DNA of 64,000 nt from Macrostomum hystrix (lineage: Eukaryota > Animalia > Platyhelminthes): NCBI GenBank assembly GCA_950097015.1, contig CATNEN010000001.1:5394001-5458000 (forward strand), read 5' to 3'. A model generated the notes under the pieces. The model had not been told where the DNA came from, did no database searches, and was given only the letters and a program-made list of their open reading frames with translations. This document shows positions 19,201 through 60,740 of this stretch, piece after piece; position 1 is the first letter of the stretch, and the number at the start of each line of letters is the position of its first letter. Both the position numbers and the translations under genes were made by a program.

Positions 19201-22200
19201 AATCCCAACCTTCAAACTGTATCCCAAAATCCCAACCTATAAACTGGTATCCCATAATACTAACTTCAAACTGGCATCCCATAAGCCCAACTTCAAACTG
19301 GCATCCCATAATCCCAACTATATCCCATAGTTCTAAATCCTAACCAATAAAACAGATACTATAATTATAACTGACAGCCAACAAAGTGATTTCTAAATGT
19401 AGAGAGTTGTAAAATGTGCTTTTTGCTTAACGCGCTACTTAAAGTAATGCCATAAGGAACTCTTAGCTACAACATTTAATCTATTTTTAGGAATGAGTCA
19501 TACGCTATTTTTAGAAACAGTCATGTGACATGAAACCGGAGAACCGGTTCTTGACAGCTGTGTTTGCTTGAATTCCAAATATGGTAAAGCAAACAATTAT
19601 GACTCATCGGGTTCTGCGTCTGTGTTTGCACTGTATTCCAAATATGGTAAAAACTCACAATCATGACTCACTAAACAAATATGTGTGACCTAAGTAAACA
19701 CCCGGTAGTAGAACCGGTTTTTCCCCAAGGTTTTGCTATAAATACAAGCGAAAATCCGAGCTAAAAATTCAGACTCGGAGCGGTCCACCGGACTTCAAAA
19801 CACCTTACGAAGAAGAGGACTCATCTCTGAGGGAAAGACAAGTGGTAAGCGCTTTATTAGACAGAGTTACTTATTGCTAGCAATAGTTGTTGAATTGAAC
19901 TAAGTTTACGAGAGCCACATATCGTCGATAAATTTGAGAAAGGCCTCCTTGTTTCCTAGGATACATTCCTAGAGGATTATTGATTGATTTGATTTGAGTT
20001 ATCCGTTATCTTTCGGAGGTAACGAAGAAGACGCCCTTCAGGAGGACCTATCAGAGATATACAAGAGAGATTTCAATTGTTCACTAGGGCGCACGTTTCT
20101 ATTGTGAATTCCGAGCTCGAGGAAACCGAAAAGTAATCTGATTCGCTCTCGTCATTTATTGGCCAACAGACAAACTCAAGCAGCTGCCAAGAAGACAAAG
20201 AAGACAAGACTACAAAGACTCAAGAAACGTAGACTCGAAACCTCACGGTCGACCAGAACAAGAAGAAGGAGAACTTACCGGACTACAAGGATCCAGAAGA
20301 CTATAAACTACTTAAGGAAGAAGAAGCAATCGCAGTAAGTGTCACGTGACTGTTATAAATTCCTAGGCAATTGTTCCCCATTGTCTAGAAGTGGGAGTTT
20401 CGTGTGTCTGATCAACACGCAAAACTCTTCAACTGGTGATCTCGCCCAGGCCCTGCAATCAAGCCCAGGCCGAGATACAAAACATTTTTTGCGGTACCCC
20501 TTTCGAATTGTTTTAACATAAAAAAAGGAAAAAAAATTTTTTGCAACTTATTAATTTTGCTTTTGATTTAAAATAATCCACCGTTTCATAAAAATTTTGT
20601 TGCGTCATCCCTCTGAAAAATTTTGCTGTCCCTACCGGATATTGTTTGCACATAAGCCACACGCGTCACTTCGCTCTATTGTTTGCACACCTGGGAATCG
20701 CGCGACTGAACTCACCGGCTCACATTTCAATAACCCATTTTCAGCGTTGAAAGCGGCATACGTTCCCTGCTTTGTATAAATTTTTCTCCCTTGTCCTGAG
20801 TAAATAATTCCTCTGTGTAAACCATTTTCATTTGCTGATACACACGCACACGCACACACACACACACTTTTTATTCACACTAAATCTTGTCAGAGAAGTC
20901 AATCTGGACGAACCCTTGAACATCGATCCAGAACTTGAATTATTTCCGTTCCCAGTTGCGAATATGGCACGAAGAAACTATCAGGTCCATCGTGACATTA
21001 AGGAAACGGTCGGAATGTATACAATGGATAAAGATTTCAACACATTCATTGATCACTTTGATTTGGTCTCACGCGAATATGGATTACAGAATGCAGAGAA
21101 AGCACTCCTACTACCTCCACTGTTACAAGGAACAGCTCGAGAAATCTATGGAAAATTGACAGCTGCAGTACAACAAGATTATCAAGCTCTAGTTACCCAA
21201 CTGAGAGCACAATTCGCACGATGTGGAACAAACAGATCGGTACTCCTTCATAAACTTCATAATCGAAAAATGAGTCCCACTGAGAGTTTTCTCACCTTTG
21301 TTGATGACATCCGTAAGATCGTCAAAGCATTACATCAGCCTCCACCATTGGATCAAGGAGCTCAACCTATAGGACCTGCCGAATCAGCTGCACGAGAAAG
21401 ACAACGTCTTGAAGACCGGGAACAAAGCTTAATACTTCATGTGATTAATAACGCACAGCCTACTTTGCGAGATAGACTGCTGAGAGAAACTATTAACACA
21501 GAGGAACAACTGCTCCGTTGTGGAATGCAATGGGAAGCTAGCGCACCTCTTATGACTACTCATAATAGTGACACGACACAACTAGCAGAACAATTAAGCA
21601 AACTCATGCAGCAACACCAAACTTCTGCTATTGTACCACAACAGCAGAGATATTCCTATCCACAACCACAACAGAGATACTTGCACACATCAACTTGTTA
21701 CACCTGTGGAAGGATCGGTCATTATGCTAGAGACTGCAGATCACGTGGCAACCCACGTTCATACAATGACAATAGACAGACCAATTGGACTCATCCTCCA
21801 AGACAGCCTTCAAACCGTAATTGGACAAATAGTCGACAACAAGATAGCAGACCATCTAATGCCATCGTACCTTATCGTCAACAAAGAAATCCTCCACCTC
21901 CAAGACAACCAACGCAAGTCCGTCGACAATACACTCAAGCTATTGAGCCTGAATACACTCAAACTATTGAACCAAAGTTCAAGATTGAAGATCTTATGCC
22001 AGACTTTTCCGTCAATGTTCTTGATGAACTTGAGAAACAAAAGAAGGAGCAAGAAATCAATGACCTTCATCTGGACAACGATGGTGCAGCCTATATTACT
22101 ATAATCGAAAGCGACCATTCGAAAGAGCCGCCCATGCCACAAAAGGAAACAGAGGATACAGAAGAAAACAATTTTTACTACAACAATGAGTCAACACAGG

Positions 22201-25200
22201 AAATACAGAACGACAACACAAGCAACGACAGCAGCTGCATAATGGGTTCATTGTTTGAAGAATTATCGATTCCCTCGCCAAGAGAAAGTGTTGCCTTCAA
22301 CACCTGTCAACACATTGAACGAAAACAAGTACAACAACAAATCAAAGGATTATTCAAAATTCCAACGATGAGTGATCTTTCAAAAATTCTGCAAAACAAA
22401 GAAGGCATAGATGAATTGTCCACATCCACAGAAAGGAATAATGAGGACCACAGTGCGAAAAATTCACACAACACGTCTGAAGAAAACATCAGCATGCTAC
22501 AAATTTTAGTCGATGACATCGACTTGACAGAGACACCGCCTTCGACACCCAAGTACAAACCTGATCCCGAATACGAAAACATAACCCCTGTCAATTCATC
22601 TGAAGGACAGAATGGACACGATAAAGCAGTGAATACCGAATCATACTACTCGAAGCACGATAGATCTTCTCAGACTAAAAGTGACTACAATACGTCGATG
22701 GAAAATGATGATGATCATATCTATGATGAACCAACAACATGGATCGACATGAGAACGGATACTACAAGTACCGTACTGCAAACTCTCAATACACCATTAA
22801 CATTCAATATGAAACAACCAACCTGGTATAACCAACAAACCAGACCATCAGGATGCAACAACCCATGGCACTTTTCTATGCGCCTTACTCCACCAATTGG
22901 AGAGACAGAAGACCAACGATATTCAATAAACACCAATAAACCGACACCACCAACCAAAGTGAAGAAAAAGAAACGACACATACTGATAAGATGGTTGTTT
23001 TCAGCCATCGTGATGTTGCTTCTCCCGACAGTTGTACCATCTTCAGTGCCCATGATTTGCCCTACTGATGCCAACATCCAACCAGTCATCTACAAAATAC
23101 CAACGGAAATCAAGTGCAGTTACTTTAAAACTAATCAAACAAAACCTATTCCATTAACGATCGATGTCTACAAAGCAAACACAAAGAAACATAGACAATA
23201 TGGTATTATCTGTTTCCGAGATAAACATGAACTAGAAAAGGTTTGGTACATCCAATGGAATCGCATCCGATTCTGGCAAACAGCACTGCCTGTCACACAA
23301 GAAGAATGCCTCCAGTGGAACCAAACATTATTTTCTAAAGATGGAGAACTTCATGCCGATGAGAAAATTGGAAACTCTCAACTCTTCAGGACCAAGAACA
23401 GTGCGAACGGTAGATATGTCCATTGGAACGAATACATATGGCCACGTTACACCACGACAAACAGTTACTTAATCCGGAAAGTCTTGTTTTACCACAATCC
23501 ATTTGAAAACATGGAATCTCTACAATTATCAATGGAAGATTGCAAGTACAATACAGGGTTCTGCGAAACAGCAAAACTCTGGAACGAAGCAGTATGGCAA
23601 GTACCGCTGGCTCCAACATACCATCAAAATTACAGATGGCAAATTGAACATCGACACAGCCCATACTATGAGATTACAGAATACCAACGACAGTACTTCG
23701 TTGCATGGAAAGTTGAACCGAATATTGATTGTAAATTCCAGAAGTACCATACAATAAAAGGAAGTCTACTGTCAAATACCTTCCTTGCGAGTACGTCGGA
23801 TTTTGCCCTAACTTTTCCAAAAAAAGCCAAGTATCTCCAAATTAACTGCAAGGAGAACTCTAAAAAACTTCTAGTGTCTGAACAAGAGATACCGCTCGAA
23901 TTACGTGATATGGATGAGGATACCTTTATGAGACTGGTCAATGGTACTTATTCAACAAGAACCAACACAGTTCGGAAAAGGAGAGAACTACAAAGACCAT
24001 CAATGGTTTCTGCACGACTACTAGCGGCAAAACTCGCAGCAATGGAACATAACCTACATAAAGAACTAAACTACTTGCACAAATCACTGATCCAACTGAC
24101 TTGTAGAATGCACGAAACTGCACTTAACTATGCACGACAAAACTATTATGTCAATCCAACGTCTACATTCAGAAAAATCACAGGGATTCAAGATGCTTTA
24201 GCTATCCCCATCTCTGGCCATCTGTTGATTTACAAATGTGTGCCACTGCATCATTTTAATATCTTGCCATCAAACACATCAACTACGTGCTACGATAAAC
24301 CCAGAATCGAAGCTTACTACAATGGGAAACGAATTCAAGGATTTCTAGATACTGTGCACAATATAATTGTTGGAACTGCAATCCCGAGACCCTGCACTGA
24401 CGCAGTCAACTATTTCAACATTAATAATAAACTACACAAGGTCTCAACAACTGGGCACATTACAAACATCACTGGTATGCAAGCTATTATCGACGAAACA
24501 TACGAACTATCGGACCTACAGCTCAAGATAAATAAGACCACCTATAAACCATTTGGTGACATCAAACTTGACGAAATCACACCAGGATGGACAATTAATG
24601 ATTTTCTTCAAGTTTTTATCGCCCAACGACAGATGATGAACAAGCTCTTTACCCAACACAACCAACAGGACAAAGAACAATCCTTTTCGACAGGATTCAT
24701 CATACATAACGCAATAGGATCCTTTTGGTCGAATAGCTTTCTCGATTTACTCCAAGGAAAAGGAAGTTACTATCAGGGATTCATCTTCTCCAGTGCATGC
24801 ATTGTATGGATTCACCTTGCACTAATGATCTTTATCACAGCAGTACGATGCGTAGCACGAGCCTATCCAGCAAAACAACGGATTTTCCAAATTGACAAAC
24901 AACAAGAAACTACTATATCCACCGAAAAAATTGAAGAAACTCTACTACAAGATCAAAGAAAACAATTATTGCCAACAACACCAAACACACCTAAACAACA
25001 TGATCTATGGGTGAACAAAAATCCAAACACTTTTCTTCTACTTACATTCACTATTGCCTCTTAATTACAATTTTGTCTACAATTACCACTAACTAATACG
25101 TTCGTAGCTGGTAACTATTGCTACTGCTCGGTGATGGTATTCACTCTCACGCTTTAGGAACAAGTTTTAAATCGAATTATCCACTGTTTCACTATGTTTT

Positions 25201-34808: not shown

Positions 34809-36997
34809 TTATTCGGCATCATCAACATCATTGACAACAGACGCCTTTGAAGAAGCCGGCGAAGGTGTTGCTGAGTATTGAACTAAGCCGCAGTTAAATA
34901 TGTCGACATCTTTATTAGCCGATTCATCATTCGATGATTCTTCGAAAATCGGCGACTTCACTGATACTGAAGCAGTCAAACACATCGTCGAAGTTGAACA
35001 TGTTGGCGTCGCTGAAGCATCAACATTCGAGAACGTCACTGCGACATCAACCTCTGAGGACGTCGCTGAAGCATCAACCTTCGAGGACGTTGCTGCGGCA
35101 TCGACCATCGAGGACGTCGCTGCAACATCAACCTCCGAGGACGTCGCTAAAGCATTAAACTTCGAGGACGTCGCTGCAAAATCAACCTTCGAGGACGTCG
35201 ATGAAGTATCAAACTTCGAGGACATCGGTAAAGCATCAACCTTCGAGAATGTCGCTGAAGTATCAACCTTTGAGGACGTCGACGAAGCATCAACCTTCGA
35301 GTACGTGGCTGAAGCATCAACTTTCGAGGATGTCGCTGAAACATCAACCTTCGAGGACGTCGATGAAGTATCAAACTTCGAGGACATCGGTAAAGCATCA
35401 ACCTTCGAGAATGTCGCTGAAGTATCAACCTTTGAGGACGTCGACGAAGCATCAACCTTCGAGTACGTGGCTGAAGCATCAACTTTCGAGGATGTCGCTG
35501 AAACATCAACCTTCGAGGACGTCGATGAAGTATCAAACTTCGAGGACATCGGTAAAGCATCAACCTTCGAGAATGTCGCTGAAACATCAACCTTCCAGGA
35601 TGTCGCCGACGTTGAAGACATCGATGACATCGCCGAAGATGTCGACGAGCCACGCCCGCCGACAACAATGCCCATTAATCGTCGATTCTGACCGGTTCGT
35701 CGTCGCAGATCGTCCGGCTCCGCAGGTCGGCCCATTTTAAACGGCGAACCATCGTCATTGAGATGTCGATCTACTCCGGTATTTTTTCTCTTAGCCGGCC
35801 TGACAGCATCCAACGGTGCCACGCTATCCATATGCAACAGCTGAGCTCCGATCTCATCAGCTGATGACTCCGGCAGTAGCTCCAGAGATCCGCCAGTCAG
35901 GGAGTGGCGAGCTAAGAAATCTGAGTCGCTAGCTGACTCGGCAGCTAGTCGTTTGCGTTCGTCGCGCAGGCCTGCTCGAATTAGGCGATTCAGCTGGATG
36001 TCGTTGGCGCCTCGAGCGGCCGTGTCGCCGGCCAGAGCGGCTAAACGTGGGGCAACATCGGCGCCGCGCTCCTCGTCCGACTTGCCGTGCTCCAATTTGT
36101 ACATGGCGTCGGTTGCTAAGCGACGCTTAGTCTCTCCGTCCTCGGGAGCAATCTGGCCGTTCTCGGTTGGATCCCAGCGTTGCTCTTTGCGGCGGGCGCC
36201 GGAAATGATGACGTAATCAAAATTTCCTGGGTCTGTACGGATCAGATACCTGCGAGAAGCGAAAGATATGATCCGAATCTAGACAATATTTTAATTAACA
36301 AACAGGCCAACTGACCCCTCTACATAAGATCAACTGATAATCTCTACGCGAGGTCAACTGACCCCTCTACGCGAGGTCAACTGACCCCTCTACGCGAGGT
36401 CAACTGACCCCTCTACGCGAGGACAACTGACCCCATAAAACAATATAAACTGATCTATCTAAACGACGTCAACTGACCCATCTACAGGAGGTCAACTGAC
36501 CCCTTTACATGAAGTCAACTAACAAACTTTACTCAACGCAAACTGACCTCTTTAAACTAGGTCAACTGACCCCTCTAAACGCGAGATAAACTGATCTATC
36601 TACACCACGTCAACTGACCACTCTACAGGAGGTCAACTGACCCCCTACTCGAGATGATACAAACACTAATAAACAAAATGAATCGAATCGATAAAATCTA
36701 AACAAACCTCTGATCGCACAGATGGCACTTCATATTAAACTCGTAGATTGGCGTACTAAAGTACATTCCGACTTTCTTCTTCTCGGCATTGTAACGAACT
36801 CCCATAGCAACGTGCCGACCGCAGCCGCCGCACCAGATATTGTACGGCATCTCAAATCTAATAACAATGATACCTTGGCCAATTTTCTTAGCTCGCTCTC
36901 GCAGCGCGTGCGTGCCATGATAGGCGTCAAGGCTGCGATGCAATCTAGGATCAAAATCTGGCGGATAGTACTTGTTTGTGCCTTTGCGTTCTCCCAT
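34809..36997 (-). CDS. YJU2B: CWC16-family splicing factor CCDC130/YJU2B with a repetitive C-terminal extension
   Basis: Exons 36997-36708 and 36249-34809. Motifs MGERKGTNKYYPPDFDP, IRFEMPYNIWCGGC, MGVRYNAEKKKVG, IRTDPGNFDY, DAMYKLEH. Confidence 0.92.
36305..36650. repeat. 23-bp minisatellite (AGGTCAACTGACCCCTCTACGCG)
   Basis: Fills the CCDC130 intron. Confidence 0.9.
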
Positions 36998-43000: not shown

Positions 43001-43712
43001 GCTGCAGTCCAATTATTTTTTTCGGGCAGTTGTTGAAGTATGTATAGATTGAATACGTTAAAATGAAATATAAACCGACGTTATCGAACAACGAAAGAAA
43101 GAAATTTATTTTATTGACTACGTTAAAGTTATTGTGAATATAGTCTTTGCAAGCATTTGCACTTTTAGCGAACGACGCACGTTGAATTAGTATATTTTGC
43201 TGAGTGACTCTTATAATAATACTCTTACAATACGAGCTAAAACCACTAACATAAAGACTGTATAAACCTATAATTAGCATATTTTTACTCCATTTTTGCT
43301 GAATTCACTGGTTTCTATAATGAAGTTTTCGTAAAGAAGAAAACATAAAACGAATAATATTCACTAACGCCTTAATTAACACTTTATAGTAGACAGATTT
43401 AGCAAATGAAAAAGTGAATAGGAGTTTTGAATTCCAAAAGATCGTTAACAAAAACAGAGTGCTATGCAAAGTTTTCCACGCAGCACATAACAGCTTTGAA
43501 GTTACTTTCAGTAATAGCTAGGTTTCGATTGCTTATTTTTCTCTTGCCTTAGCTCAGCAGAAGTTAAGTTCTCTGCATAGAATAAGTGGCAGGAGGTACT
43601 CTGCATAAGGTCCATATAGTATTACAGACGATGGTAATGGTACTATGGTTCTATGATGCATAAAAAACTCGATCAAGTCCTGTCGCATCAAGAAGAGGTT
43701 CCCATTTAGGAC

Positions 43713-45431
43713 TTAGTTGCGCTGGCTCTCCCGTCCGGCCCAGAGCTGGCCCTTGATCATTTCATCGCAATCGATACCAATCATCGCTTCGCCGAGATCC
43801 TCGCTGACGCGAGCCAGAAACTCCGGATCTTTGTAGTGCGTCACCGCCTGGACCATGGCCTCGGCGCGCTTCTTGGGATTGGCACTCTTGAAGATGCCCG
43901 AGCCGACAAACACGCCATCCACTCCTAGCTGCATCAGCATGGAGACATCGGCCGGTGTGGCCAGACCTCCGGCTGCGAAATTCACCACAGGCAGTCGGCC
44001 GAGACGCTTCACCTCTTTGAGCAGACCGTGAGGCACCTGAAATCAAAGGAGCGTTCTGTTTTACAACATAACATTCTGAAACAAGCAAGGCAATTCTGCA
44101 TGGAGATGAATAGAAAAGGGGCTATCGCATTTGCCTCTATGATCCTTGTGCTCGAATCGATTATGCCAATGAGAGCAACTCCCCACCTATAAAGAAGCAC
44201 AGCCAGGGGGAGGCAAGGGTGTCGCGGCCCCTCCAAATCGGCTGACGAACATGTGGCGCACACTGGTAGTGGCACCTCAAAGAGGCGCGCCAGCCCCCTA
44301 GAAAAAATCCTGGCTACGCTACTGCACCAGTGACGCCGGCCTGTGTGCGTACTTGTTGAGGAGTAAGCGTGATGAGTATCTGCAGAATCGCCTCCCACTG
44401 ACTGCGGGCCTACTGTCACTAAATGATGTCAACCCAGTTTTTAATGAACCAAACATCGCAATGCTCACCTGCAGCTGCTTAGCATAGGAATACAGCTCGT
44501 CATCGTCCATCACTTTGGCCGCTCGCATCTCTCTATTGAGCGCCCTCGCGTGCCGCACCGCCTCGATGACATTGCCGGTGCCGGCCTCGCCCTTCGTGCG
44601 CATCATCGCGGCGCCCTCCGCAATGCGACGAAGCGCTTCGCCCAGATTGCGACAGCCGCAGACGAACGGAATGCGAAAACTGTGCTTGTCGATATGGTTC
44701 TCCGGGTCGGCCGGGGTCAGAACTGTACGTTGCGTTTAAATAAGTAAATTAGTGTTCATTTTCAATAGCCTACTATTACTACGAAGTTTATTTTTTAACT
44801 CACCTTCCGATTCGTCGATCATGTCGACGCCAATCGCCTGAAGAATCTGGGCCTCAGCGAAATGACCGATTCTGGCCTTAGCCATGACCGGAATGGTGAC
44901 GGCGCTCATGATCTCTTTAATGAGCTTCGGATCGGTCATTCGGGCAACGCCGCCCTGTTTGCGAATATCAGCTGGCACACGTTCAAGGGCCATAACGGCA
45001 CAAGCCTGAAATCGTTTTATTAGTGCTGTTTGAGCCTGCACTTTTCCATGTCTGCCAAATGGGAAAAAATTGTGTCCCTGAGCACTTAATTCCCGAGTCA
45101 GCTTTGAATTAGATACCAACACGAGCTGGGGTAAAAACTCGGGTTGGATGTACGTTGCGGTTCGAGCTTTACGAGGGTACACAGCGAACTATTATTATCA
45201 CTACCAAAGGATATAAGCTTCCAGTCTTGTAAATTTTTAATGGACGCTATGTACTTTAAACTTTAAGTTTTCGTAAAGCATGCAAGAAAGAATTCAGCAT
45301 ACCCCGGCTTCCTCGGCTATCTTGGCCTGCTCGGCGTTGACAACGTCCATAACGAGACCGCCTTTGGTCATCTTGGCGAGGCCAGTCTTCACTGTGTACG
45401 TGCCCACAACAGAATCGCCATTGGTAGTCAT
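43713..45431 (-). CDS. PDX1: Pyridoxal 5'-phosphate synthase subunit PDX1 (SNZ/PdxS)
   Basis: Exons 45431-45303, 45005-44804, 44722-44469, 44036-43713, phase-consistent. Motifs [98 protein letters not shown]. Confidence 0.97.
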
Positions 45432-46086
45432 TTTTAGTGTGATGATAATATTCAACTATAATCTATACTTCTCTAGAGGGATTATTCTTTCTACCTAGGA
45501 CTCCGCGCGACTTCGAATTAATTAATATAAGCGAAAGAAAGTGACTCTTCAATCACCTGGGGGGCTAACTCTTTAAAGACTCGACGTGCCGAGGACAGCA
45601 GCAGCTCGGGGAGGGGGGGCAGAAGCCTCGAGGTGGGTCGCTTCTAATTGGACTAGCTGGGCATCGAGAACTGAACCAACCTCGATGCCTGTACAAACAA
45701 CTTCTTCGAGCTAGAATGTGGGAAGGAATTGTGCGGTTGAAGCGAGTGTGCGGCTGAAACGCAAATAGAATGGAAGCCGTTCGGGTGTGCAGTTGTAGCC
45801 ACACAATCCTTGCTTCCGTTCTATTTGATGACGTGCACAGCTTGTTTTCTCTGCGCCGTTTGGCTCAAGTACACTTTAAGCTAGAATTAGCTAGCATTGA
45901 GTCTTTACTTGAGAATCTACGTAGAACCAGTCAATAAAAAATACGTGTTGACTTAAAAATCTCTAAAGTTAAACCGTGAGAAATCTGCATTTGATCAATC
46001 CAATTTATAAAATTGTGCAAACACGAACAGGAGAAGACCTAAAAGCATTTTTCTGGTGCCAATCTAGTCGCAGTTTAGAAGCAATC

Positions 46087-49000
46087 ATGCCTCAGTTGAA
46101 AGTTGGCCTGCTAGCTATTCAGGGAGCTTTCATTGAGCACCGCAGTCTCCTGGCTGCGGCCGCAGAGCGGCTTCAGCTGCAGAGAAACTTTCCAGACGGC
46201 TGCTCCGTCGAAGCAGTTGAAGTGCGTCGCGGAGATCAGCTGACTGTAGATTTGGACGCACTCATTATTCCTGGCGGCGAAAGTACCACGGTGGCCAAAT
46301 TCATGCTGCAGAATGGTCTTCTTGATGCCTACAAAATCTGGTTTAATGGTAAGTTAAGAACATACTAAGCTACCTGAGGTTTGAAGTCCTCTTGAATTAA
46401 GATGCTAAATATTACTCAAAAAGCTTCTAAATAGTTTTCGAATCGTAGCTCATTGGAATTAATTTTTGTCCCTGAGCAATTGACACTTGATTCCCTTGTG
46501 TCCAGTTCACCCAACTGTTGAATGGGATAGCTATTAACTTTAACTTTTTTTTAACTTTGATTACACCTGCCCCAATCGGGCCAGATGTGCAGCCGACAGC
46601 ACAGCCGCAGCTATTGCGCGGCGCATCTGAAGGCTGCGTACAGCTGTTCAGTCCATGGACTGGGGGGACGCCACACCCACCTTCAATTATCCCAGCTGAT
46701 GCTGGTACCCATTTAACAGCTGGGTGAACTGAAGCAATGCAGAGTTAAGTGTCTTGCTAAAGGACACAAATTGTTTCAGTGGAGTCGGGAATCGAACCCC
46801 CGACCTTCAAGTCGTTAGTCCGACGCCCTAACCACTAGGCTACAACCTCTACGGGATAGCTATAAAATACGGCTGTGCTACTGGATGAGCATATGGCCCT
46901 TTGTGTGATTTCGATATATTTACCATATGCAATTATTACAAAGCATTACCTGACTGACATTGCAGAAACCAATCCGAAGGCCATTGTGTGGGGCATCTGC
47001 GCCGGCTTGATAGCTTTATCAGACAATGTTGTTGACATGAAAACTGGCGGGCAAACTTTGGTTAGTAGCTCGTACGAAATTAAACTGAAGAAGTTCACTT
47101 ATTCATGCAAACTTTATTATCCCGACGCATCTTTCATTTGGAACTTCATAATTTCATAATTAAGCTGGCCTTATAGAGCAGAGTTCAGAGTTCAGATATT
47201 CGAAACATAAAATAAACAAATATCATCCAAACAATAAGTCCATCTAGATTAGACTCCATCAACCCATCGCAGACCCAAAAAACCGCTGTAGAACCCACAA
47301 ACCCTTTGTAGAACCCACAAACCCTTTGTAGAACCCACAAACCCTTTGTAGAACCGACAAACCCTTTGTAGAACCCACAAACCCTTTGTAGAACCCACAA
47401 ACCCTTTGTAGAACCCACAAACCCTTTGTAGAACCCACAAACCCTTTGTAGAACCCACAAACCCTTTGTAGAACCCACAAACCCTTTGTAGAACCCACAA
47501 ACCCTTTGTAGAACCCACAAACCCTTTGTAGAACCCACAAACCCTTTGTAGAACCGACAAACCCTTTGTAGAACCCACAAACCCTTTGTAGAACCCACAA
47601 ACCCTTTGTAGAACCCACAAACTCATTTTTGAACCCACAAACCAATTGTAGAACCCACAAACCCACTGTAGAGTCCACAAACCCATTGTAGAACCCACAA
47701 ACCCATTGAAGAACCCACAAACTCATTTTTGAACCCACAAACCAATTGTAGAACCCACAAACCCACTGTAGAGTCCACAAACCCATTGTAGAACCCACAA
47801 ACCCATTGAAGAACCCACAAACCCATTGTAGAACCCAAAAACCTTTTTGTAGAACACACAAAACCCTTTGTATAACCCACAAACCTATTGTAGAGCCCAC
47901 AAACCCATTTTAAAACCCACAAACCAATATTAGAACCCACAAAAACATAGTTGAACCCCAAAACCCATTTATTCCTAGCAAAACCTCACAAACTCACAAA
48001 CACATCCCACAAAGTCATTGCAATATTGCATAATCCACTTCTACACGTCGCACTGTGACACAAAATATTGCATAAGAGATTGCAAAGCGCTGATTTAGTC
48101 TAATTGTGTCTCTAATTAGTGTGTTTCTAAAGTTCAACGTGCCAGCTCGTTTCTGAAAGCGTTCAGCCAGTTGCTACTGAAGCCTCGATGCGATTATCTG
48201 TTTATCGGAGCGAATCTAAATAGTCAAAAAAGATCAAAGACCAGTCCCGCCAAAGTTTAGTTATGCTTGGCAGCGATTTTTGCAACTAAAAACCTATTAA
48301 ATATTCTGAATTTCCAGAAGACTGGTTTAGTCTTCTAGTTACGTTTAGTAAGACTAGTCACTTCGTCTTAGTGTTTATCTTTTTCAGATTGTTGAATTCG
48401 AAGTCAAATAGTTGGTACTAGAAACTATCTTCAGTATATAATCTTAATTAAAACATTATATCATTTTAGTTGTTCCGACAGTGAAAAGTCAGTATAACGT
48501 TAAAGTTTACGTCACGAGTTAAAATCCAATGCTAATGTAAACGAATTAAGTAGCTAATTGGTTCACCCTGCAGTGTAACATTGAGTGTCATTAGCTTTAC
48601 AAATCGTGAAAATCATGAAAAAATATAGCGTGAAGTGGAGCAAATATTCTGATAAGAAACGTTACCAGTGGGTTTTTAAATCGGTTTATTGGTTTATAGA
48701 TGTATTTTCTTCATTGTATAATTTTGGAGTGATTATGCGGTCTACATATTTTGAATGAATGAATTCATTCTATCTTGCTAACTTGCTAAAATACCCATAA
48801 CTTTGAGCCATAGACATTCGGAGAGGGCAAAGATGATGCATTGTACACTTTTGGAGGGGTTTTTTCCCAGCCACCAATGAAGCCTGATTGTTGCACGCCT
48901 TTACTGTCTATGTCCCGAACCCCGCCAGATCCTGCGGGGTCTTACAGCCTTCCCCAAACTGAGTTCTCTTGCTGCCCCAAGTCAGGCGGTCTACTTTTGG

Positions 49001-50365
49001 ACCATAGACATTTCGGGCGTGCACCAATCGACAAAATAATCGCTACGCGCCTCGGTTAAAAACATTGCAGCACTCATAGCCGTTTATTACTATATCATTG
49101 CAGCACGCTCTGAAAAAAATAGTTGCATGCTTCCACTGTCTGTAGGTAAATGCACCCAAAATCTTGTTTGTTAAAAATGTTGACGTTTTTACTTGCAGTA
49201 GAGTGTTGATATTCTTTCGTTTATTTTTGTTTTTAACACTCAAAACACGCAGATTCGTGGCTTGGCCATAACAACAGACAGAAACTTTTACGGGCGTCAG
49301 CGAGAGAGCTTCGAATGCTCGATTGAGTTGTCGGCGCAGGAAGAATTTGAGCAATGCAGCGGTGAGCCTTTGCTTTCAATCTTAATCTACGCTCGTAAAT
49401 TCGTACTAGCTTTTAAAGCAGGGGTTGGCAAACTCCGGCCCGCGGGCCAGATGCGGCCCTCAAAGCTCCCAAATCCGGCCCGTTGCCCCTTCCAACACCT
49501 ATAGTATACAGTTTCATATTTCCCCTGTCTCATCTCTCCCGTGTGTCACCTCTCCCGTGTCTTATCTCTCCATTGTCTCGTCTGTTCCGTGTCTTGTCTC
49601 TCCTTTGTCTCACCTCTCCTGTGTCTCATCTCTCCCGTATGTCATCTCTCCCATGTCTCGTCTCTCCCGTGTCTCATCTATCCAGTGTCTTATCTCGCCA
49701 TTTGTCTCGTCTCTCCCGTACTTTATCTCTCCTTTGTCTCATCTCTCTCGTGTCTCATCTCTTCTCTCTCTCATCTCTCCTGTTTCTCATCTCCCACCTA
49801 TCTCTGATATATTTCTCTTAGATTTCTACAGTCTGCGCGGCCCGCTGTCGTCTTTTAGGTTCTCTTTTTGGCCCGCTAGCTAATAAGTTTGCCGACCCCT
49901 GTTTTAAAGCAATCAAATATGGTCAATATAAATGACACCTAGACCCGTTTGGGCAAGATTTACAGCCAGTAGCACATCTGCAACAATTGCCCGGAGCTTC
50001 AAAAGGCTGTGTACTGTTAAGTCAATGGACTTGCGGGCCCTGCAGGCAGCATCAAATTGGATAGATATATATATACATTTGTAATTAGCGATAAATCTGA
50101 AATTTTTGATCTGTGAAGAATGCACTACAATAACCTCATTATTCCAGATCCGTTTCCGGGCATATTCATCAGGGCGCCAAAGATTCTGAACATCGACAGG
50201 CCTGACGAAGTCCGGGTGTTGGCCACAGTGAGCACCTACCCAGTGGCTGTTGCCCAAGGCCGCATTTTGGCATGCAGCTTCCACCCGGAACTCACACAGG
50301 ACTGTCGTCTGCACCAGCTGCTGCTGAATATGATTCTGAAGAGCAAGGGACAAAGCCTAGATTGA
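46087..50365 (+). CDS. PDX2: PLP synthase glutaminase subunit PDX2 (SNO/PdxT)
   Basis: Exons 46087-46348, 46966-47060, 49253-49361, 50148-50365, phase-consistent. Motifs GLLAIQGAFIEH, IIPGGEST, WGICAG (catalytic Cys), RNFYGRQRESF, FIRAP, FHPEL (His/Glu of the triad). Confidence 0.96.
46535..46849 (-). mobile_element. tRNA-derived SINE (family B) with a CORE/Meta-like central domain, in PDX2 intron 1
   Basis: On - strand: A box TAGCCTAGTGG, B box GGTTCGATTCC, then TGTGTCCTTTAGCAAGACACTTAAC...CCCAGCTGTTAAATGGGTACC. Related fragments at ~11620-11770 and ~46465-46530. Confidence 0.75.
47280..47965. repeat. 20-bp minisatellite (ACCCTTTGTAGAACCCACAA)
   Basis: Tandem array in PDX2 intron 2. Confidence 0.95.
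49419..49901. mobile_element. Non-autonomous hAT-type MITE in PDX2 intron 3
   Basis: TIRs CAGGGGTTGGCAAAC / GTTTGCCGACCCCTG; 8-bp TSD TTTTAAAG (49411-49418, 49902-49909); subterminal GGCCC repeats; pyrimidine-rich satellite interior. Confidence 0.9.
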
Positions 50366-51259
50366 TATTCGTTAAGGCCAGCTAAAATAACGCTGAATTG
50401 AATAAAATGACTCAAATTTTATGCCTTCTGAGTATGTTTGCTTCAAAAACATCATCTTTTAGTTCGCTTTCATTAGCTTTTATTAGCGAGGTAGTCTTTC
50501 ATTTAAAGACTGACTACCTCATCCTTAACTAATACATCTCGTGATTTCTTCAAAGCATGTTAATCTACCTGATTTTCTTTACAGTACATCGACGTGAAAT
50601 GTTGCTTGAGTCCAAAAAGATTAAGTATTTAATCGTTCCTAAAACTTTGATATTCACTTCATATTCATATGCCATTCTAATATATCTATCTATCTGTTAT
50701 GTGGCAATATACAAGAAATATAGTTTTTCTTGTTTGAATATCAGTAAAAATTACCAAAATTTAAAGAAAAAAAGTAAAAATAACACATAGAGAATTAGTA
50801 AGCATCGATTTTGAGCATATACTCGTAATCAAATTCAGAAGCAGGGACCGTGTTTTTCTAACTAATATTAAAGAGAATATATACTTGATTTAACAAAACC
50901 TGCAGTGTTTAACCTGGATGTGGACATTACCAGATTTTCCTTCCCATTGGGATTAAACCACTTAACTAAATTTGGTTCACAGCAAAGATCGACAGGTAAG
51001 CCCATGCAGTGCAAACGGCATGCTTCAGAAAGGTAATTTAGTTGCAATCAGCAGCCGAAATTGATATTTTTCGCGTCAATGCACAGATAGAATTATTTTA
51101 CACAAAGCGACACATCCAAAACAATGACATTCTTATTAAATTCTACTCAACCGGATGATTCAAACACAGAGGAGTTCTTTTCGTATAAATAAGGTCGCTT
51201 TACAAAGATCCACTGCACCGATATTCGAGCCTCATCGAGAAGAAGAAATCTCATTAACG

Positions 51260-55525: not shown

Positions 55526-55891
55526 ATAATAGTAATAATAATTACAAGAGGGCTGCGGGCAATGGTACATCGTTTTAGTGACATTAGACCCGCAGCCAGC
55601 GAGGAGGCAATTCTGCCCATTTCACTGACTCCTGAGCACACACGCACACAGATACTGTACGCAGGCATATGCTCACACAGGTGTGTACATCTGTCCTGAC
55701 ATTCTTATTGTCAGGCAGTGTAAATTTCACTGTGCCTTGGAGGTTGGCCAATCAAGGGCGTAAATTGCACGACAAGCCCCCAAGCCTTCTCTCCGCGGCT
55801 GCGCCCCAAATAAATGTGGCCTCTCCGTGGAATCGAACTTAGGGACCATGGTGCGAGATGCAAACGCGATAACCGCTCTGCCACCGACCCC
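55526..55891 (-). mobile_element. Full-length tRNA-derived SINE (family A)
   Basis: On - strand: head GGGGGTCGGTGGCAGAGCGGTT (A box) and GTTCGATTCC (B box); (TTA)n-like tail; 15-bp TSD CATAAGGTGGATTTA at 55511-55525 and 55892-55906. Confidence 0.9.
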
Positions 55892-60476: not shown

Positions 60477-60740
60477 GGGGGTCGGTGGCATAGCGGTTTG
60501 CGCGTTAACGCGAGGGCCAAACTCCAAAGCACAGCGAAGTGTACACTGCCTGACGATGAGAAAGTCATCGCAGATGTACACACCTGTGTGAGCGTGTGCC
60601 TGCGTACGGTATCTGTGTGCGTGTGTGCTCAGGAGTCAGCGAAACGGGCAGAATTGCCTCCTCGCGAGCTGCGGGTCTAGTGTCAGTAAATTATGTGCCA
60701 TTGCCCGCAGCCCTCTTAAAATGTTTATTATTATTATTAA
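60477..60740 (+). mobile_element. SINE family A copy, internally deleted
   Basis: Shares head GGGGGTCGGTGGCA, body (GTACACTGCCTGAC...GTGTGCTCAGGAGTCAGCGAAA) and TTA tail with 55526-55891. Confidence 0.85.

Follow-up and report, generated by a model that had tools for sequence, protein, structure and literature searches.

A transcribed head-to-head PDX1-PDX2 gene pair in the flatworm Macrostomum hystrix, predicted to code for a vitamin B6 synthase and likely inherited from early animals

Analysis of a 64,000-nucleotide stretch of the genome of the flatworm Macrostomum hystrix (GenBank assembly GCA_950097015.1, contig CATNEN010000001.1, positions 5,394,001 to 5,458,000; the whole stretch is referred to as the window) revealed two adjacent genes, PDX1 and PDX2, corresponding to the two subunits of pyridoxal 5'-phosphate (PLP) synthase, the enzyme of de novo vitamin B6 synthesis. 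We conclude, with a probability of roughly 0.85, that they form an intact, spliced and transcribed head-to-head pair which was likely inherited from early animals and which codes for a predicted working two-subunit PLP synthase. The pair had been noticed in an earlier reading of the window made from its letters, the sequence-only reading.

Translation of the exons, inspection of the splice sites, Pfam searches and residue matching agreed with the sequence-only reading that both subunits are intact, with catalytic motifs and three introns each (Table 1). PDX1, on the minus strand, comprises four exons with 909 coding nucleotides for 302 amino acids without an internal stop, separated by introns of 297, 81 and 432 bp, while PDX2, on the plus strand, comprises four exons with 684 coding nucleotides for 227 amino acids, separated by introns of 617, 2192 and 786 bp; all six introns are of the GT-AG type. 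The two genes are divergent and the coordinates confirmed that their start codons lie 655 bp apart. The Pfam family SOR_SNZ (PF01680) matched PDX1 exons 1, 2 and 3 with 42, 125 and 137 bits, and SNO (PF01174) matched PDX2 exons 1 and 4 with 43 and 56 bits, against a curated cut-off of 27 in each case; the short PDX2 exons 2 and 3 were below the cut-off. The papers cited here by PMC number are represented by excerpts, to which statements about them apply. Residues of the Bacillus subtilis enzyme were mapped onto PDX1 by an offset of +5, anchored on the K149 peptide given in PMC3024981. The catalytic D24, K81 and K149 of B. subtilis correspond to PDX1 D29, K86 and K154, the P2-site residues H115, R137, R138 and K187 to H120, R142, R143 and K192, and E105 to E110. 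The Cys-His-Glu triad of PDX2 consists of C99, H201 and E203, its motifs line up with the solved PdxT structures via the orthologue of Macrostomum lignano, and a search of the ESM Atlas returned nothing beyond the SNO family.

Fourteen sequencing runs from five studies match part of the stretch, and seven of them cover a share of 0.46-0.53 of it, which is near the exonic share of 0.43-0.50. Single contigs aligned to positions 43400-47250 omitted all three PDX1 introns in four of four runs and PDX2 intron 1 in three of four, so the check on RNA junctions proposed by the sequence-only reading came out in favour of these four introns. The contig carrying PDX2 exon 1 runs on into exon-2 sequence in the transcript-like runs X2, X4 and X5. 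The spliced transcripts come from three studies, and each exon piece shows 0-4 substitutions. Short 5' tags, which we take to be the template-switch oligonucleotides of the libraries, are present in runs X2 and X5 and differ between them; the two runs agree on the transcript ends at 45542 (PDX1, minus strand) and 45855 (PDX2, plus strand). Both runs are from the same study as X1, a possible source of the assembly. Untagged contigs stop at 45505-45533 on the PDX1 side and at 45842-45863 on the PDX2 side. As a source of the extra 5' letters, spliced-leader trans-splicing was dismissed, since the tags differ between runs and no genomic AG acceptor is present at either join.

The tagged 5' ends are thus separated by 312 bp, below the 1 kb expected of divergent gene pairs with a bidirectional promoter. 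With a G+C content of 0.53 and 17 CpG, this spacer exceeds the untranslated regions (UTRs; 0.32-0.36) in both respects, and no upstream ATG occurs on the sense strand of either 5' UTR. In every transcript-like run that was aligned, the PDX1 contigs were deeper than those of PDX2; as contig depth is no basis for ranking genes, it was not used. The flatworm would make its own PLP by the predicted PDX1 and PDX2 synthase, and from this layout the spacer may act as a shared promoter coupling the two subunits. Disruption of the spacer would then harm both subunits, and the pair would be hard to break; this may be why it persists in animals that kept the pathway. It is also conceivable, if unlikely, that each of the adjacent, expressed genes has a promoter of its own, or that the enzyme adds little to the B6 supply. 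The spacer showed no conspicuous shared symmetric element, and its short repeats were of chance size, as two promoters would have it, but 5' ends 312 bp apart fall under the 1-kb signature of PMC3514665, and the conserved layout (see below) and the intact active sites argue for selection.

Searches for homologues indicated that the top named PDX1 matches are sponges, annelids, tunicates and copepods, interspersed with zoosporic fungi, and that PDX2 carries a database label in many molluscs, Lingula, Tigriopus, Owenia, Xenia and Lepeophtheirus (20 PDX2 representatives were looked up, of which five had names: Owenia, Dermamoeba, Xenia, Lepeophtheirus and Argonauta). Together the named matches of the two proteins span sponges, an octocoral, annelids, a brachiopod, many molluscs, copepods and tunicates, a range that does not fit the claim that B6 synthesis is kept in only scattered invertebrate lineages. 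The best PDX2 matches are four M. lignano models with 72-75% identity on exon 4, and the full PDX2 shares 75.5% identity over 229 columns with one of them, which points to a probable macrostomid host distinct from M. lignano. One Lepeophtheirus-like database protein (P0064), probably a chimeric gene model, has a coiled-coil N-terminal part fused to the C-terminal half of PDX1.

The PDX1 phylogenetic tree, constructed by maximum likelihood under LG+G4 from 48 rows (named animals and fungi, seven unnamed rows and 14 of the 80 prokaryotic loci), placed the window protein with annelids (support 97/88), within the non-sponge animals (99/94) and within the animals (100/98). In the PDX2 tree (46 rows) the window protein is sister to M. 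lignano (100/99), and all 21 animal rows are on one side of a branch with support of 93/95. Introns in 16 further loci were mapped with a purpose-written spliced aligner, whose control run on the window returned the PDX1 model found there. Site and phase of PDX1 intron 1 are common to five of the eight loci that cover it, those of intron 2 to nine of 14 and those of intron 3 to three of 16 (L115, L090 and L108, two of them outside the animal clade); the comparison of intron positions suggested by the sequence-only reading therefore found all three sites and phases again in other loci, for which the rough probability by chance is 2e-6. The site of PDX2 intron 2 is common to L085, L095 and L103. 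L090 and L108 are intron-containing PDX1 genes on long branches outside the animal clade which, as in the window, have a phase-0 intron after codon 195.

Vertical inheritance of PDX1 is the clear reading of these data, and of the two origins that the sequence-only reading had left side by side, ancestral retention and an old horizontal transfer, it is the former that stands. That the flatworm lineage received the pair from a bacterium or a fungus is highly improbable: Chloroflexota pdxS reaches 72% identity to the window PDX1, Caldilineaceae pdxT lie near the eukaryotic PDX2 in the tree and transfer has been reported for cyst nematodes (PMC4901422), but the animal PDX1 matches are stronger, with up to 78-81% identity, and approximately unbiased (AU) tests rejected the grouping of the window PDX1 with fungi (p 0.0118) as well as with prokaryotes (p 0.00087). 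Moreover, prokaryotic pdxT was on the strand of pdxS in 37 of the 37 loci where it was found (80 examined), unlike the flatworm pair. Because PDX1 nests in the animal clade and has intron sites in common with other animal-type genes, transfer is largely refuted, a rejection that applies to transfer into the flatworm lineage. In the sets used here, no prokaryotic sequences come nearer to the eukaryotic proteins than pdxS and pdxT of Caldilineaceae and other Chloroflexota (L001-L080), a likeness that offers a lead as to where the eukaryotic PDX genes came from.

Metagenome contigs were scanned with an animal-type PDX1 motif and 43 loci were obtained. Four of them are intronless with pdxT on the same strand, operon-like as in prokaryotes, and 31 were set aside because they were transcript-like or came without the PDX1 5' end or upstream DNA. 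In seven of the eight informative, intron-containing loci PDX2 is upstream of PDX1 on the opposite strand, with 339-2,158 bp between the first aligned codons. In the PDX1 tree two of these linked loci group with sponges (L095, L118), three with copepods (L085, L098, L119) and one with a non-sponge group (L091); L103 is placed at the base of the animal clade. The PDX1 and PDX2 proteins of Owenia (CAH1798748.1 and CAH1798749.1) have consecutive accessions on one chromosome. The same adjacency and orientation in distant phyla, namely in these seven loci and in Ciona, together with the adjacency in Owenia, likely reflect an old animal arrangement that was lost in many lineages.

An alternative is that the genes are ancestral and the head-to-head layout was assembled several times in animals, obligate subunits being favoured as neighbours. 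A divergent SNZ/SNO pair, patchy in ascomycetes and Dictyostelium, is tabulated for 12 of 64 species, including Ciona intestinalis (Davila Lopez 2010, PMC2871058, supplement file 4), the two genes of the chytrid Gonapodya are on separate scaffolds, and the copepod-clade locus L102 is without a partner, so that repeated assembly is plausible between kingdoms. Within animals we regard it as improbable, since all seven linked loci, from sponge-like to copepod-like, as well as Ciona and the flatworm, have the same orientation, for which one origin with some losses is simpler. Going further, we lean slightly towards the view that B6 was already made by the last common ancestor of animals, with PDX1 and PDX2 head to head as one unit under a single promoter; this unit would persist today in sponges, flatworms, annelids, copepods and tunicates and may be identical with the pair of ascomycetes and Dictyostelium.

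Several observations weigh against an ancient and functional pair. On the side of the transcripts, no run is recorded as RNA, their nature being deduced from joined exons, the absence of coverage over introns and the 5' tags, and reads support four of the six introns (PDX1 introns 1-3 and PDX2 intron 1), PDX2 introns 2 and 3 being placed by sequence. The C-terminal R288 of B. subtilis, involved in co-operativity, falls on L293 by offset, with a two-residue insertion nearby; PDX1 R297 corresponds to the terminal Arg of most named homologues, and the R288A mutant still makes PLP (PMC3024981). M. lignano PDX1 was absent from the best 120 PDX1 matches, which the candidate limit or the annotation may explain. 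The PDX2 animal clade is below the starred support level and has long branches, and the tree pairs the flatworm with the copepod Tigriopus, contrary to the species tree, a pairing that may reflect these long branches. The PDX2 tree took in one named fungus only, and both trees left out plants, algae and named unicellular holozoans. None of seven aligned loci, of which three were partial and one poorly aligned, has an intron at the position of PDX2 intron 1 or 3. As to the layout, the motif of the metagenome scan favours animal-type genes, and the loci are a small sample without species names, placed by PDX1 alone. L102 showed no PDX2 match in 12.7 kb, including 6.9 kb upstream and 4.5 kb downstream. 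The evidence from Owenia is adjacency by accession, without orientation, and Tigriopus (both genes on one 16.5-Mb sequence, accessions 11 apart) and Lepeophtheirus (both on one 57.6-Mb sequence) give a hint only.

As a single locus the flatworm pair is an ordinary member of a known enzyme system, and it is the conserved layout that merits following. The pathway genes occur across sponges, an octocoral, spiralians, copepods and tunicates and the tree largely follows animal phylogeny; auxotrophy therefore looks like repeated loss, which bears on claims of symbiont-supplied B6 in invertebrate hosts and on aquaculture diets. If the unit is as old as proposed, B6 would be a vitamin only for the lineages that lost it, the PDX pair would be among the oldest conserved gene neighbourhoods in eukaryotes, and it would have been overlooked because the main model animals are without it. 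A Macrostomum-like worm would be a workable laboratory animal in which to study how animals synthesize PLP and whether the promoter is shared.

Table 1. Features of the PDX1-PDX2 locus (window coordinates)
Feature	Position	Strand	Remarks
PDX1 exon 4	43713..44036	-	coding part, up to the stop
PDX1 intron 3	44037..44468	-	phase 0, after codon 195
PDX1 exon 3	44469..44722	-	carries H120, R142, R143, K154, K192
PDX1 intron 2	44723..44803	-	phase 1, after codon 110
PDX1 exon 2	44804..45005	-	carries K86
PDX1 intron 1	45006..45302	-	phase 0, after codon 43
PDX1 exon 1	45303..45542	-	111-nt 5' UTR; ATG at 45431 (coding 45431-45303); D29; tagged 5' end 45542
Spacer	45543..45854		312 bp between transcript 5' ends; candidate bidirectional promoter
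PDX2 exon 1	45855..46348	+	232-nt 5' UTR; ATG at 46087 (coding 46087-46348); tagged 5' end 45855
PDX2 intron 1	46349..46965	+	phase 1; tRNA-headed short interspersed element (SINE), opposite strand, about 46560-46850
PDX2 exon 2	46966..47060	+	catalytic C99
PDX2 intron 2	47061..49252	+	phase 0, after codon 119; 20-bp minisatellite 47287-47943
PDX2 exon 3	49253..49361	+	predicted
PDX2 intron 3	49362..50147	+	phase 1; miniature inverted-repeat transposable element (MITE), presumably hAT-like, 49419-49901
PDX2 exon 4	50148..50365	+	H201, E203, stop; AATAAA at 50401

The introns were said to carry host SINEs, a MITE and a minisatellite, and all three kinds of repeat were found in PDX2; of the SINEs one was shown directly, and PDX1 intron 3 has a piece of another repeat (44341-44429), which matches dispersed repeats at 55574-55651 and 60613-60696. 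The MITE is 483 bp long, ends in 15-bp inverted repeats that differ at one position, has a target duplication of 8 bp and is presumably hAT-like; it contains a 16-bp minisatellite related to one at 31.2-32.3 kb. These repeats bear on the extremely improbable case of an assembly chimera or a non-animal contaminant. X1, the only DNA run that covers the whole stretch, may be the source of the assembly, and its 7,936-nt contig spanning 45250-46490 is not independent of it. Against a chimera, intron pieces match flanking host DNA of the window at 1.3-1.5, 55.6 and 60.6 kb, hundreds of contigs in the same runs bear the intronic SINE, the nearest PDX2 is that of M. lignano, and the spliced transcripts of three studies match the exons closely.

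The G+C content of third codon positions is 0.70 in PDX1 and 0.58 in PDX2, and 0.40-0.64 in six neighbouring coding stretches read in frame. The right-hand neighbours are genes for a rhodopsin-family G-protein-coupled receptor and an ANF_receptor protein resembling metabotropic glutamate receptors, as the sequence-only reading had it; its nidogen-like gene fits the EGF/LDL-receptor-B gene at the start of the window, in which the domains proper to nidogen were unmatched in Pfam. To the left of PDX1 the nearest long open reading frame is a CBF/Mak21 (NOC4-like) gene. Elsewhere in the window, an open frame of 1,418 amino acids (20808-25064, plus strand) combines a gag-like zinc knuckle (Pfam zf-CCHC) with a C-terminal half that is cysteine-rich and envelope-like by eye, no polymerase domain being matched in Pfam; it sits between exons of a gamma-tubulin-complex gene on the opposite strand. 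Many introns between 8906 and 59737 have each their own minisatellite, with periods of 14-33 bp and lengths of up to 1.3 kb, and a 28-bp and a 16-bp family each occur at two places. A Yju2/CCDC130-like gene region (34809-36278, minus strand) has a 27/162-bp tandem repeat within a long open frame.

Most animals are said to be without de novo B6 enzymes (PMC6071262), a review states that animals cannot make vitamin B6 (PMC7954711), and in the excerpts of PMC10192322, PMC8789280 and PMC6879607 B6 is mentioned only for symbionts or in a reference. Our literature search, with subscription papers outside its scope, found nothing on B6 synthesis in Macrostomum or on an animal-wide PDX1-PDX2 pair, and a search for 'SNZERR' found no paper. 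Earlier studies have reportedly dealt with SNZ in sponges and with how animals gained and lost B6 genes. The sequence-only reading had cautioned that novelty would drop if the pair was already documented, and this caution was justified: M. lignano already has an annotated PDX2, a published table gives the divergent pair for Ciona, and the genes are labelled at NCBI in sponges, annelids, molluscs, copepods and tunicates. What may be new is the apparent age of the head-to-head layout in animals.

Comparison with known systems places the locus as follows. The solved PLP synthases (Pdx1/Pdx2 or PdxS/PdxT; PDB 2NV2, 2ISS, 5LNR and 3FEM) belong to the same families, PF01680 and PF01174, and have the same catalytic residues, whereas the flatworm pair, known here from genes and transcripts, has spliceosomal introns; no animal chain was evident, by molecule names, among 32 matched PDB sequences. 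The animal SNZERR/PdxT-like proteins of Suberites, Amphimedon, Capitella, Owenia, Ciona, Tigriopus, Lottia, Lingula and M. lignano are orthologues by tree; they are database labels, to which the flatworm locus adds transcript 5' ends and gene layout. The cyst-nematode SNZ/SNO are likewise de novo B6 genes in an animal genome, cited as horizontally acquired in PMC4901422 (Craig 2008), while the flatworm genes were vertically inherited. The SNZ/SNO of yeast and other ascomycetes (three yeast pairs are given in Table 4 of PMC3303733), Dictyostelium and Ciona share with the flatworm locus both the two genes and the divergent adjacency (PMC2871058); the available text of that paper attributes the pair to fungi only, and the conservation from sponge-like to protostome loci seen here is not stated in it. 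There is a parallel in layout with the conserved 5'-5' pairs less than 1 kb apart described by Irimia 2012 (PMC3514665), whose list may already contain PDX1-PDX2. Among these HSPE1-HSPD1 are, like the flatworm PDX genes, obligate partners kept across animals, and the shared promoter demonstrated for HSPE1-HSPD1 is what the layout suggests for PDX1-PDX2.

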